This document shows, piece by piece, positions 35,147-40,278 of a DNA stretch of 64,000 nt; positions within the stretch are counted from its first letter, which is position 1; each line of letters starts with the position of its first letter. The stretch is from Chrysomallon squamiferum (Eukaryota > Animalia > Mollusca), in the NCBI GenBank assembly GCA_012295275.1, contig CM022672.1, positions 13,144,001 to 13,208,000 of the forward strand, written 5' to 3'. Both the position numbers and the translations under genes were made by a program. The notes under the pieces were generated by a model. That model worked only from the letters and a program-made list of their open reading frames with translations, made no database searches and was not told where the DNA came from.

Positions 35147-38100
35147 TTATTTTCCGAAACGAAGACTGGGTATGCGGACAACCACGGACTCCGGCTGACG
35201 CTGTTGCTTCAAGCTAGAGAGAAAAGCCGCTAAATTATTCACCAGTCTCTGCTGTGTCCGCTTTTGCACTGAAATAAAAAAAATAAAAATAAAAATAATA
35301 AAAATATAATAATAATAAAAAATTCAGCATTACGGAAAGTGCAGATTAAGATCAGGTAACTGAAACTTGATTTTAAAAATAGTGCAGTTGAAATAGAAAA
35401 TTAAACAGTATTACTGAAAGTGGAAAATTAAACTGAAAAAAAAAAAAAAAAAAAAAAAAAAAATGGCGGTGCTAAAATTGCAAAATAAACAGGAATGACT
35501 AAAATAGCAAATTGAAAGAACTACTGAAACTGCAGATAAAAAACAACAACAACAACATCAAACCCCTCCCCCAAACAGCATTGCTGGGATTGCAAATTAT
35601 AAAAAGTATTTATGATATTGAAAATTTAAGAAAGACTGTGAAACTATAAAAAGTATAAATTAAACCATTTTCGAAATTGCAAAAGAATGCCAATTTTGAA
35701 TGACTTTTTATTTGATTCATTTTTAGAGTAAATTTATTTTAAAATTGGTATGTATGTGTATGTATATAGAAATACATACATAATATACATTATAGATAGA
35801 CAGACATAAACATGCACGCAAACAACAACTGGTCGTATTCAATATCAATTTTATCATCATCATCATTATTATATTTATTATTATAACATTACTACTACCA
35901 TTTCTACTACAATACAAATGCATTAAAAAAATTAATAACTGAATTGCATATAGAACGAAAAATGAATCAAATATATATATATATATATATATATATACAC
36001 ACACAACACAAACATACATAATACATTATAGATAGACAGACATAAACATGCACACACTGTAAATTTTCATCATCATTATTTTTATATTTATTATTATTAT
36101 ATTACCTCTACTACTATTTCCACTACAACAAAAATGCATTAAAAAAAAAAATATTAAAAAAAAAAAAAAAAAAAATGTTTTGAAAAATTACAGCATATGG
36201 AACATAAAATTCGAACAATTGTTATGCATTATCAAGTTCAACTTACTTTGATCGAAGTCGTTCACACTGTCTACATTTCTGAAGCGGAGTTTTTTCAACA
36301 GTAACTGGGACACGTCTGAAATAAAGAAACAATCGTTAGAGATCCAAAAATATTATATAATTTTAGAAAGAAAGAAAGAAAAAAAAAATAAAAAGGAAAA
36401 ATTTAAACAAAAGGAAAACGACAAGCCATTTTTCTACGTGACATTGCTGGATTATCGTAATGTCCGTTTGGTTTTCGGATATGACGTCAACAGTCAATTT
36501 ACGTATCGCTTATTAAGTAGAAAGACCTGGAAAACTAATCTGTCTAGTTCATCGCGTTTATTTAATTTATAGAACACTTTTTCAGTGAGTACATACAACT
36601 AATTCTGTTTTATTTTGTTTTTTAATATCTGATGCATTTGTCTTTGTTTCCTTTATATATATATATATATAAGTGGCTTTTAGTCGGAAATTAATTTTCA
36701 GAAGTCACATTTAACCTTTTAAAGATTTTATTTATTTATTTGTTTATTTTTTCTAAATATTATAAAAAAGAATAATAATGGGTGGAAATCTTAGTAAACA
36801 AATGTCACTTGTAACATTCAGTTTCTACGTAATTTGTTACAATCAAAATATTATTCATGATTTAAAGCAAACACTTAAATACATGGCATTCATTTCTTGT
36901 ATTCATTAACTGAGGTCACACATTTTCAAAATATTGGTTTAATAATTAATAACTGAATTATATTTAATACCTCTTGTTCTAACTGTCACTTGTTCAAAAT
37001 GTTTCTCTTTACTGAAGCCAGACTGCGTGTCTTCGTCCGTTTGCTACCGTATTTTACCGAAATACAACCTGCACTTACAAAACAGCTTCTGAATTCACCG
37101 CGTACAATTTAAAGCGAGTCGATAAGTTTTAGTGGTTAATCCTTCAGGATTTCAAACCATTAAGTACAAATTATTTAAGTAATTAATTCGTTGAAGTTCA
37201 GTCGCGTGTGACTGATAGTCATCGTGTCAAACAACGTCTGCATGTTCTGGAACAAGGAAGAGGATCAACATACCATTGTGTGCCAACGTCAATAAACGGT
37301 AAGAGTCAATTAACACCAACTTTTATACGAGCTTTGCAGCGTTGTTTTCAGTCTGTGGAAACAAAAACATTAACTACATGCGTTTAGTCTGTAATTATCG
37401 GCGAAGTTCGTAATGAAGGAATAAATAGTGGGGTCCAGCTCTGTTGTATGGCGCTCGCCTGATGTGCAGTTCATTTCAGGATCGATCCGCGTCTGTGGTT
37501 TCTAAAGGCTGTTTCTCTTTCCAACTAATGCACTCTCATTGATAAAAACAGTTTCTTGATGTACGTAACCCATGGCGGCTTTATCAATGCCGAACGTAGT
37601 GAAATAGCAATGTATTATTTTTACTGTTATACGTTATTTCCCTAAAACAATAACATAATAACAACATCTATATATAATTATATGCTGTGCGTCTATTGTT
37701 ATTTTTAATTAAGTTCCTTTTTTATTACTTATTTTTCGAAAATAATATCTTATCTGTAGTTATATGATTCGTGAATAACCAAAAAGTTTATTTGCATTGG
37801 TTGGAGTTATAAATTCCGTTCCGACAACATAGTTGACAAATTTAACAAATAATGAATAAACACTAAATTATCACACTTCAGAAATAATTACTTCTGCTGA
37901 GTAAAATATAATTGATTTATTTAGTCTTTATTTATTTATTAAAATACATTTTATACTTTGCATAGTTCCAGGTTTTGTTTTATTTATTTATTTATTTATT
38001 TATTGCCGACCAATCTTATATAATAACGAAGTAAACACAAAAAAACAACAACAAAAAAACAAACAAAAACAATAACAATAACAAAACATTTTGGCTTATA

Positions 38101-38689
38101 TTATAGTGCCGCCATTTTTCTCTATCAGTAAAGATGTCGCATACAGACTCGGCTTGTCAAAAGCGAAATGGCAACGTTTTAATTTTTTTTTTTTTTTTTT
38201 TTTTTTTTGACACTACTGTGTTACTGTCATACTTTATTATAAACGATATGATGTCCAAAACAATAAAACAATAACATGGAAAGATGTAGATCTGGTCTTT
38301 CAGACCATCGATTCGTACCGACACAGGTGTACTTTGGCATTAGGCATTAGATCTAAAACTTTTCGGAAAAGAAAACGTGTCGATATATCGCATACTGTTA
38401 TTACACTTTAACAGCAGTTAATTTCTTTCTTTCTTCTTTTTCAAATAAAATGAAGAGAGAGAGAGAGAGAGAGAGAGAGAGAGAGAGAGAGAGAGAGAGA
38501 GAGAGAGAGAGAGAGAGAGAGAGAGAGAGAGAGAGAGAGAGAGAGAGAGATTCAAATCTTACCGTTACGTAATTCCTTGTTAAAGTAGTTTTCTCTTTCT
38601 TGCGGTTCAATGTTTTGAGACGTGGCGAGACACGCACACAACATCAGCGTGACGGCGAAGAAGAAATAACTGAGAAGAGTTTGCTGCAT
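35147..38689 (-). CDS. RFamide neuropeptide precursor, 105 aa (26RFa/QRFP-like; SLRFamide C-terminus)
   Basis: Exons 38689-38563 (ends AACG|gtaaga), 36315-36247 (tttatttcag| ... |gtaagt) and 35268-35147 (tttatttcag| ... TAA), all phase 1. Protein: MQQTLLSYFFFAVTLMLCACLATSQNIEPQERENYFNKELRNDVSQLLLKKLRFRNVDSVNDFDQMQ-KR-TQQRLVNNLAAFLSSLKQQRQPESVVVRIPSLRF-GK*. It has a signal peptide, a dibasic site and an amidation signal. Confidence 0.92.
35325..35690. repeat. Degenerate ~26-27-bp minisatellite in the last intron of the RFamide gene
   Basis: About 10-11 units like cagcattacggaaagtgcagattaa, cagtattactgaaagtggaaaattaaa, cagcattgctgggattgcaaattat, interrupted by a poly(A). Confidence 0.6.
35773..36212. 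repeat. Tandem duplication, ~240-bp period
   Basis: atacattatagatagacagacataaacatgcac...aaatgcattaaaaaa...gcatat(a/g)gaac occurs at ~35773-35970 and ~36013-36212. Confidence 0.8.
37428..37545 (+). mobile_element. 5' part of a tRNA-derived SINE
   Basis: tRNA-like head gcgctcgcctgatgtgcag.. with B-box-like GGATCGATCC (37479-37488), followed by ggctgtttctctttccaactaatgcac. Confidence 0.6.
38454..38550. repeat. (GA)n microsatellite immediately inside the RFamide gene intron
   Basis: Perfect GA run of about 97 bp. Similar (CT)n at 45265-45330 and (GA)n at 57294-57341. Confidence 0.95.
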
Positions 38690-38814
38690 CTTCACTTTCT
38701 GAAACAAACGGAACAAGACGGTGACATACGGGCAGCCTATAGACAAATGATGATTCGCGATACGCACGTTGTTTAAAATGTAATGAAAATACGATACCAC
38801 GTTACAAAAAATTA

Positions 38815-39136
38815 CAGGCTGGGGAGGATCAGTTATGATAAATGTTTAGGGCCAGATGTATTTCAGAGTTCGGAAAAAAAAATTTGATTTTAGAATATAA
38901 CGACATAACCTGAGAATGGGATATAAGTCTAAACACAAATTCCATTTATAGTTCATATACAACTTTGACAGATTCTGTGCGGGGTTTTTTATTATGATTT
39001 TTTTTTTTTTTTTTTTTGTTCATGAAAAAAAGGTTTGTGTATGCAAAACCATCCGAAAAATGTGAGATATCACCATTATAGATGCTCGGTAAAATGTTCT
39101 TAGTTTCCTGATTTTGGATAAGGAATCCTCTAACTG
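38815..39136. mobile_element. Tigger4/MER46(Zombi)-like non-autonomous DNA transposon
   Basis: Ends TA|CAGG.. and ..gattttggataaggaatcctctaactg|TA. Internal gggatataagtctaaacacaaattccatttatagttcatatac and catgaaaaaaaggtttgtgtatgcaaaaccatc resemble Tigger4-family internal sequence as I recall it. Confidence 0.7.
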
Positions 39137-40211
39137 TATTATACAAGTATTATTATTATTATTATTATTATTATTATTATTTAAATTTTATTTTATTTAT
39201 TTATTTTGCCAGTGTAAGAGAATTGCACTGTTTTATTATCAAAATGAACACTTTAGTAGCATCCAACGACAACAGATGAAAATAATAATAATAATAATAA
39301 TAATAATAATAATAATAATAATAATAATAATAATAAAATAAATTAATAAAATAAATTAATAATGATGATGATGATGATTTTATAATTGTGTAATCTAGTG
39401 TTTTTTTAGTATAATAATGGCACTGAAGATTATAACGGGATGGGAGATGAACATAAATTTAAATAAAATAAAAAAAATAAAAAGTTTAAAATTGTTTTGT
39501 TTTTTTTAAATGTCAGCTACAGACATAATATGAATTGCATTACTGGTCTCTGAATTCGTACTGGTCAGATTATTCTGTCGGATCCTTTCAGTCTTATTCC
39601 TTTTATTTTCGTTTGCTAATGTTTTTTGATTTACTGGTATAATCTAAAAACTGAAGTTATAAGAAATGTGTTATTATACTTCTGTGAAACTTGCTCTCTG
39701 CAAGATGGAGAAGTTAATAGCTCTGTGCAATACAGAGAATGTCGGTGACGATTATTATTATTATTATTATTATTATTATTATTATTATTAATATGGTGAA
39801 AAATAAACAGTCAGCGATACCCTATGGATAAAAGTTGGTATCAGTATAAAAATTCTAAAGTTAAATTTTGTTACAGAATGGAAGCTTGCAACAAAAATAC
39901 AAATAACACAATTAAATAATAACTGCAACAAGTACTGATATATTTTTTTGTTAAAATATATTGAAAATCTGTGAACATTTCCTTTCCACAAATAGACAAA
40001 TACATGCACAGAGATACAAGTACACACACACAAGGACACACACATAACTTAGAAGAAAGACAAAATAACCATGAAGAAACACGTACATACACATACAAAC
40101 GCAAAACAACAAACACACACACACACACACACACACACACACACACACACACACACACACACACACACACTCCCTCCCTACAAACTTAAGACTCAACTTA
40201 AAAATCAAAGT

Positions 40212-40278
40212 ACCTACCTGTATAGCTTTGCGTTGACTGAGCACCTTGGAAAATTAGACGTCAATTTTGGTTTTTATA
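40212..40278 (-). promoter_or_regulatory. Core promoter and short non-coding first exon of the RFamide gene
   Basis: Minus strand: TATAAAAA (40278-40271), CRE-like TGACGTCT, Inr-like TCAGT near 40238, then donor CAG|GTAGGT at 40218/40217. The matching acceptor tttgtttcag| is at 38698, 9 nt before the ATG. Confidence 0.65.

Follow-up and report, generated by a model that had tools for sequence, protein, structure and literature searches.

Does the short gene downstream of Abl in the snail Chrysomallon squamiferum encode a protostome counterpart of the vertebrate neuropeptide QRFP/26RFa? Here, we studied this question for a 64,000-nt window of its genome (assembly GCA_012295275.1, contig CM022672.1, positions 13,144,001 to 13,208,000 of the forward strand; coordinates below are those of the window unless a locus is named), in which an RFamide precursor gene is found on the minus strand at 35147..40278. 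An earlier interpretation made from the letters without database searches (the sequence-only reading) had proposed this gene as the mollusc QRFP ligand, given its peptide and its position relative to Abl. For the human side, we take QRFP to lie immediately 3' of ABL1, on the other strand (9q34). Our answer is that the snail gene belongs to the lophotrochozoan SLRFamide/LRF family, and that this family is the likely protostome ortholog of QRFP/26RFa and would be the ligand of the orphan QRFP-type receptor. To this whole explanation we assign a probability of roughly 0.7. Since no specific QRFP sequence signal was found, the case rests on gene order and precursor architecture and not on sequence statistics.

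The snail gene is real, i.e., it has three coding exons and its last splice is seen in RNA. Its parts are the following.

40272..40278, minus strand: TATA-box-like motif, predicted promoter (from sequence)
40218..40240, minus strand: predicted non-coding exon 1, approximate 5' end, GT donor after 40218, to which 9 leftover letters of the RNA contig fit by length only
38563..38698, minus strand: coding exon 1, ATG at 38689, predicted signal peptide at about residues 1-23, phase-1 donor
36247..36315, minus strand: coding exon 2 (69 nt), family motif LLLKKLRFR, to which the loose end of the RNA contig maps
35147..35268, minus strand: coding exon 3, KR, 34-residue peptide, GK amidation signal and stop, covered by RNA
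35156..35257, minus strand: predicted mature 34-residue SLRFamide, from sequence and homology with gastropod, bivalve and annelid peptides
35156-35197, minus strand: predicted Gln-initial 14-mer after a single Arg (residues 21-34)
34840..35146, minus strand: 3' untranslated region, RNA to 35077, candidate poly(A) signals at 34940, 34918 and 34845

The coding exons join to a frame that is open over 105 residues, with GT/AG at all used splice sites and two coding introns, both of phase 1. As the sequence-only reading had described, the product consists of a signal peptide (predicted from hydropathy only, with a peak of 2.2-2.6 over residues 5-23), KR, a single 34-residue peptide with a PSLRF end, and GK followed by the stop. 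That is, each precursor holds one C-terminal RFamide peptide. While the three coding exons listed in that reading stand, it had missed the predicted non-coding exon 1 as well as the conserved LLLKKLRFR motif of the middle exon.

Four sequencing runs (three of RNA, one of unrecorded kind) were compared with 34470-35280. One of the three RNA runs provides a single 406-nt contig (depth 5.8), which matches the genome between 35077 and the acceptor (35268), leaves it exactly there and continues in 36247-36276, with these 30 letters being unique in the window. Contigs of the fourth run, in turn, run on along the genome beyond 35268. The loose end of the RNA contig comprises 214 letters, i.e., 69 + 136 + 9, such that the two upstream junctions are backed by length and homology and are not directly seen. 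Runs X3 and X4 have no contig for 34470-35280, which does not prove that the transcript is absent. Splicing of exon 1 to exon 3 without the middle exon would also be in frame (82 residues); the RNA contig gives it no support. At 35228, the RNA contig has a silent C>T (third codon position, Ala) that is also present in a contig of run X2, and we therefore regard it as an allele and not as editing.

The Gigantopelta ortholog (P0084) is identical to coding exons 1, 2 and 3 at 21/42, 11/19 and 26/38 positions, respectively, with a score that none of 1000 shuffles reached, and exon 2 matches all four gastropod homologs identified below. One might still argue that the exons are chance open frames without a transcript, given the one contig of depth 5.8 from one of three RNA runs and the two junctions backed by length and homology. 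This is refuted by the exact splice from 35268 to 36247, the full-length annotated Gigantopelta ortholog and the conservation of all three exons, and we regard it as practically negligible.

With regard to its family, the snail gene is virtually certain to be a member of the SLRFamide/LRF family of lophotrochozoans. Rather than founding a new peptide family, it adds a gastropod member to a known one, because the same precursor type is already in print. The suspicion, voiced at the outset, that such precursors may be catalogued already was therefore well founded. For the scallop (Patinopecten) LRF precursor (MH045251 = XP_021354453), a Gln-initial peptide with PSLRF-amide end is predicted, as well as two products, one of which derives from an upstream motif (PMC5996578). 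Oyster Cragi-SLRFamide was labelled bivalve-specific; its peptides are reported in nerve tissue, truncated forms were found by mass spectrometry, and expression is mainly larval (PMC8398477). Platynereis SLRFamide was labelled annelid-specific, with one pro-region peptide reported and expression increasing from 72 hours to a peak at 10 days (PMC3890597; it is also found in PMC7737342). The supplements of PMC6425005 and PMC8557429 group three bivalve and two annelid precursors (including Capitella CapteP226322) in one block.

The bivalve and annelid precursors share with that of the snail a signal peptide, the pro-region motif LLxKxLRFR (more precisely LLxK(K/N/H)LRFR, located in exon 36315-36247 of the snail), KR, and one helical SLRF-G peptide of 31-34 residues, while the snail precursor is shorter (105 vs. 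about 130-145 residues). The snail peptide also follows the pattern hydrophobic-x-x-hydrophobic-A-x-x-L after KR with C-terminal SLRF-G. Within their accessible parts, neither PMC8398477 and PMC3890597 nor other papers on the family report gastropod SLRFamide members, and PMC8398477, PMC5996578, PMC3890597, PMC6425005 and PMC8557429 give no receptor, Abl linkage or QRFP link for SLRFamide/LRF. Gastropod membership, the Abl synteny and the proposed QRFP orthology are new here; the family itself was already known.

Gastropod homologs were identified by a HMMER scan of representatives and a subsequent profile search from the true match. The scan resulted in three matches, of which one is real (Gigantopelta P0084) and two were dropped as repetitive unrelated proteins. 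Among the ten candidates of the profile search, four are family proteins, all named uncharacterized.

Gigantopelta: XP_041368033, 'uncharacterized protein'
Babylonia: XP_076454586 and XP_076436672, both 'uncharacterized protein'
Littorina: XP_070176173, 'uncharacterized protein'

Compared to the last exon of the snail gene, these show 23-26 identities over 37-38 aligned residues and the same motifs; a word-based search with that exon found no homolog. The two copies of Babylonia areolata (P0085, P0087) have near-identical mature peptides but lie on different contigs, only one of which is apparently shared with Abl.

Beyond gastropods, nine loci were obtained by scanning metagenomes with a degenerate pattern of the annelid C-terminal motif. 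Two are real SLRFamide genes (L004 and L009), while seven were dropped as chance matches. None of the 504 pattern matches from a metagenome scan based on the gastropod alignment was confirmed. Mature peptides comprise 34 residues in the snail, 33 in the four gastropod homologs and 31-32 in L004 and L009, with helix positions and SLRF-G end kept from the annelid-type loci to the gastropods. In L004 (10095, minus strand) and L009 (1644, plus strand), the mature peptide starts with Gln directly after KR, unlike in the snail, so that the full-length annelid-type peptide could be pyroglutamylated there. The Gln after a single Arg, from which a pyroglutamylatable shorter product had been proposed for the snail, is kept in most molluscs, but it is absent from oyster and annelids and is not at the pyroglutamate position of QRFP43.

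The new evidence for the comparison with QRFP is gene order. In the window, the relevant neighbours are as follows.

7637..18138, plus strand: Abl tyrosine kinase coding exons (SH3, SH2, kinase and F-actin-binding domain), from Pfam and tblastn with Gigantopelta Abl
29860..31342, minus strand: intervening gene, predicted secreted 268-residue protein with two coding exons, no family found

Abl on the plus strand and one gene in between, both part of the original proposal, are borne out by these searches. From the Abl stop at 18138 to the stop of the peptide gene there are 17,008 bases, and the two genes are arranged tail-to-tail. The C-terminal stretch of this Abl shares 93% identity with Abl of Gigantopelta aegis, 81% with that of Haliotis, and less with those of other molluscs, which places the snail close to Gigantopelta.

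Abl linkage in another lophotrochozoan had been set beforehand as a check, and it is found in L004. There, Abl (plus strand, kinase and F-actin-domain exons, stop at 6594) and the SLRFamide gene (minus strand, stop at 9991) are again tail-to-tail, with a gap of 3,396 bases. None of the 50 open reading frames (ORFs) of this gap has a Pfam match, and no counterpart of the snail's intervening gene is seen in it. The SLRFamide gene of L004 has three coding exons and two phase-1 introns, with intron 1 in the same codon as in the snail, before LLLK-LRFR. Its Abl F-actin domain shows 35-42% identity to nine molluscan domains, compared to 57-94% within the molluscan set, and its peptide motifs agree with those of Platynereis and Capitella. 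Judged by these sequences, the locus is from outside Mollusca and is therefore called annelid-type. Abl was the sole gene looked for in L004, and by chance it would turn up in 10 kb of animal genome with a probability of the order of 1 in 10,000 (rough estimate). In all three other gastropods for which both genes were found, Abl and the SLRFamide gene are apparently on the same contig (contigs of equal size). For Gigantopelta, their accession gap is 62, where accession order is a proxy for position only. Given the snail and the annelid-type locus, the lophotrochozoan Abl-SLRFamide linkage is old.

We consider the SLRFamide family the likely QRFP counterpart because its genes are found tail-to-tail near Abl in the snail as well as in the worm-type locus, as we take it to be for human QRFP. 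This Abl-adjacent position adds to further likenesses between chordate QRFP and the SLRFamides, namely a single C-terminal RFamide peptide after a basic site with an S-x-RF-amide end, and an N-terminal helix with a hydrophobic residue 5, L8, A9, L12 and a basic patch. The snail gene has two phase-1 introns within its coding region, while that of human QRFP presumably is one exon.

For the sequence comparison by eye we used human 26RFa from Table 1 of PMC4058657. Aligned without gaps from the cleavage site, the L004 peptide is identical in L8, A9, L12 and N13, with V5 in place of L5 and R18 in place of K18; from the C-terminus, S, R and F are common. The snail peptide fits the 26RFa helix pattern with a shift of one residue. 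The proposed common pattern T...L..NLAxxL is thus not one register, because NLAxxL needs this shift relative to human 26RFa, and the orthologs do not conserve T1. With regard to the chordate L4, A8, K18 and G20 (25-mer numbering, again by eye), the Ala is present, the Leu is replaced by Val and the Gly is absent; at K18, the snail shows Arg and L004 shows Asn with an Arg one position before. Chordate QRFP precursors hold a single C-terminal peptide (PMC4062910), with 9RFa as a further product of the human and frog gene (PMC4255600). Receptor-bound 26RFa forms a helix with an extended C-terminal tail (PMC11148045). A structure model of P0084 similarly shows a helix to residue 94 (predicted local distance difference test score of 87 over 71-90) and a non-helical tail, which is weak and generic given a predicted TM-score of 0.30 and 4 sequences.

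A number of observations weigh against the orthology with QRFP, and the likeness to 26RFa is weaker than had been stated. QRFP was singled out by none of the profile, Pfam or language-model searches. PF11109, the Pfam family of 26RFa, matches neither six SLRFamide queries at E up to 10 nor the two annelid-type peptides at E up to 0.01. Among PDB sequence and profile searches, none of which found an RFamide peptide, four runs were without match and a fifth gave four unrelated proteins (a QRFP chain is presumed to be in the library); a profile of three last-exon peptides matched unrelated helices. In the Atlas search, the QRFP cluster is ranked 21st of 30, below DH31, NPFF, CCK and myosuppressin, and the last exon alone gave no usable match. 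SLRFamides are 5-8 residues longer than 26RFa (31-34 residues vs. 25-26 for QRFP), lack GG at 20-21 and have Leu in place of Phe24 (L-R-F in every member compared), a residue that is essential for human QRFPR (PMC11148045). The SLRFG string occurs five times in the Thiel supplement, in each case in a mollusc or annelid, while the receptor is listed for five phyla. Furthermore, the Lottia QRFPR model, which may be truncated, has a short N-terminus without the part that clips the helix in the human receptor.

Gene order has its counter-evidence as well. Outside molluscs, L004 is the only locus in which Abl linkage can be tested: L009 extends only about 880 bases 3' of its gene, in which no Abl is seen, and its peptide is 97% alike to that of L004, i.e., the two are not independent. 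With accession order as a proxy, the Abl-SLRFamide gaps are 791 for Babylonia (490 in gene ids), 561 and 803 for Littorina (two annotations) and about 12,500 for scallop. Reading these gaps as a rough proxy of position, tight linkage is kept in the annelid-type locus and in the lineage of this snail, while two caenogastropods and scallop have probably lost it. Finally, the open-licence literature provided no confirmation of the human ABL1-QRFP adjacency; FIBCD1 is likewise absent from the QRFP papers found there.

As an alternative, SLRFamide could be a lophotrochozoan RFamide unrelated to QRFP that acts on another receptor (the orphan kisspeptin-type, or an sNPF/NKY, luqin or NPF-type receptor) and shares the Abl neighbourhood with vertebrate QRFP by coincidence. 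Apart from the sequence searches, which show no preference for QRFP, three of the last four residues agree with kisspeptin and RFRP-1, as well as with 26RFa, a multi-copy amphioxus precursor also gives peptides with PSLRF-amide ends, and no tested QRFP counterpart exists for the pro-region motif LLLK-LRFR. We rate this explanation as rather unlikely. It needs two RFamide genes with a single long helical peptide to have come to lie independently tail-to-tail behind Abl, and the lophotrochozoan linkage is old. Kisspeptin and RFRP-1/GnIH have the C-terminal LRF-amide in common with SLRFamide, and arthropod sNPF has an R-x-PSLR-like end; none of their genes is known to us to be linked to Abl. In molluscs, PMC8557429 assigns the sNPF role to other peptides. 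These are presumably the LFRFamides. Kisspeptin and RFRP-1/GnIH show no common N-terminal helix register with SLRFamide (PMC4058657, Table 1), and the KISS, NPFF/NPVF and PRLH genes are in other paralogons (PMC4131245).

QRFP-type receptors are listed for molluscs and annelids, among five lophotrochozoan phyla in all, and were orphan in both 2014 (PMC4062910) and 2021 (PMC8557429). Lophotrochozoan kisspeptin-type receptors are likewise orphan, and in Platynereis an sNPF-type receptor is activated by the long NKY peptides (both PMC8557429), which again fits a peptide unrelated to QRFP. The mollusc QRFP ligand proposal is partly supported: Abl linkage and the presence of an orphan receptor clade in molluscs and annelids are in its favour, and its sequence argument is weaker than had been stated. 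Open-licence papers and preprints gave no link of SLRFamide to QRFP or Abl, although a subscription paper could hold one. The main texts of PMC8398477, PMC3890597 and PMC6425005 do not mention QRFP/26RFa, and that of PMC5996578 does so once, in a generic way; the accessible parts of PMC5818035, PMC4208404, PMC4131245, PMC11521371 and PMC5207463 contain nothing on a protostome QRFP ligand.

A different outcome arises if this gene and QRFP stem from one Abl-linked ancestral locus, but the receptor has changed or the main product is a short SLRF-amide or an upstream LRFR-ended peptide that signals elsewhere. The additional length, the Leu for Phe24 and the short N-terminus of the Lottia receptor model fit this explanation, as do the multiple truncated peptides from oyster mass spectrometry (PMC8398477) and the two products, one from the upstream motif, predicted for scallop (PMC5996578). 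However, annelid-type and gastropod peptides have kept the helix positions and the SLRF-G end, and a peptide usually co-evolves with its receptor (PMC5818035), so that we assign such a change a small probability. Taken separately, orthology of the SLRFamide gene with QRFP appears quite likely to us, while the predicted pairing with the QRFPR-clade receptor is held with less assurance, though still as the probable case. The joint statement, namely that SLRFamides are protostome QRFP/26RFa, that the tail-to-tail Abl-QRFP pair dates back to the bilaterian ancestor, and that the 31-34-residue peptides are ligands of the orphan receptors, seems probable on balance.

Assuming that the SLRFamides are the protostome QRFP/26RFa, the following course can be proposed. 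Based on standard neuropeptide biology, the signal peptide would direct the precursor to the secretory route, where convertases would cleave at KR and the final K, followed by carboxypeptidase trimming and amidation at Gly. Products would be the 34-residue RFamide and shorter forms cut at conserved single Arg sites. Binding to a QRFPR-clade rhodopsin-type G protein-coupled receptor is predicted to involve two sites, i.e., the N-terminal amphipathic helix would stay outside and serve as address, and the extended SLRF-amide tail would be the message, with RF-amide in the receptor pocket. Like human 26RFa, the peptide would probably signal via Gq; from the expression of the orthologs, one may guess at a function in larval development or in feeding.

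The SLRFamides are thus a candidate ligand family for a lophotrochozoan receptor without ligand in the 2014 and 2021 reviews, put forward by gene order and not by short-motif likeness. If true, a peptide family lacking a receptor is joined to an orphan receptor, the QRFP system and the Abl-QRFP pair are dated to the bilaterian ancestor, and QRFP biology (feeding, energy balance) becomes accessible in Platynereis, oyster and snail models. This also provides a positional recipe: the region just 3' of Abl is where to search in echinoderms and hemichordates, for which QRFP precursors were still lacking in 2014.

The intervening gene has no Pfam match. A TATA-like motif is found near 33070, and its product shows dibasic sites, the stretch WPRSWGWG and a possibly amidated CCDIG end; the gene could be a second, unnamed peptide precursor. 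We rejected it as a diverged SLRFamide copy, as neither family profile matches its frame (E up to 5, 2010 ORFs of the window). TGACGT motifs resembling cAMP response elements lie near the TATA boxes of both genes, i.e., at 40255-40262 (minus strand) for the peptide gene and near 33120 for the intervening one.

On the other side of the peptide gene, 48719-50196 (plus strand) holds exons of calcyclin-binding protein/Siah-interacting protein (Pfam; CS match). Human CACYBP is, as we assume, located in 1q25 together with ABL2, which would make this a second old Abl linkage. Exons at 53887-56308 (minus strand) resemble, by eye, an AhpD-type peroxidase-related gene, with no useful Pfam match, and 57793-61657 (plus strand) carries an isocitrate dehydrogenase subunit gene (Pfam Iso_dh).

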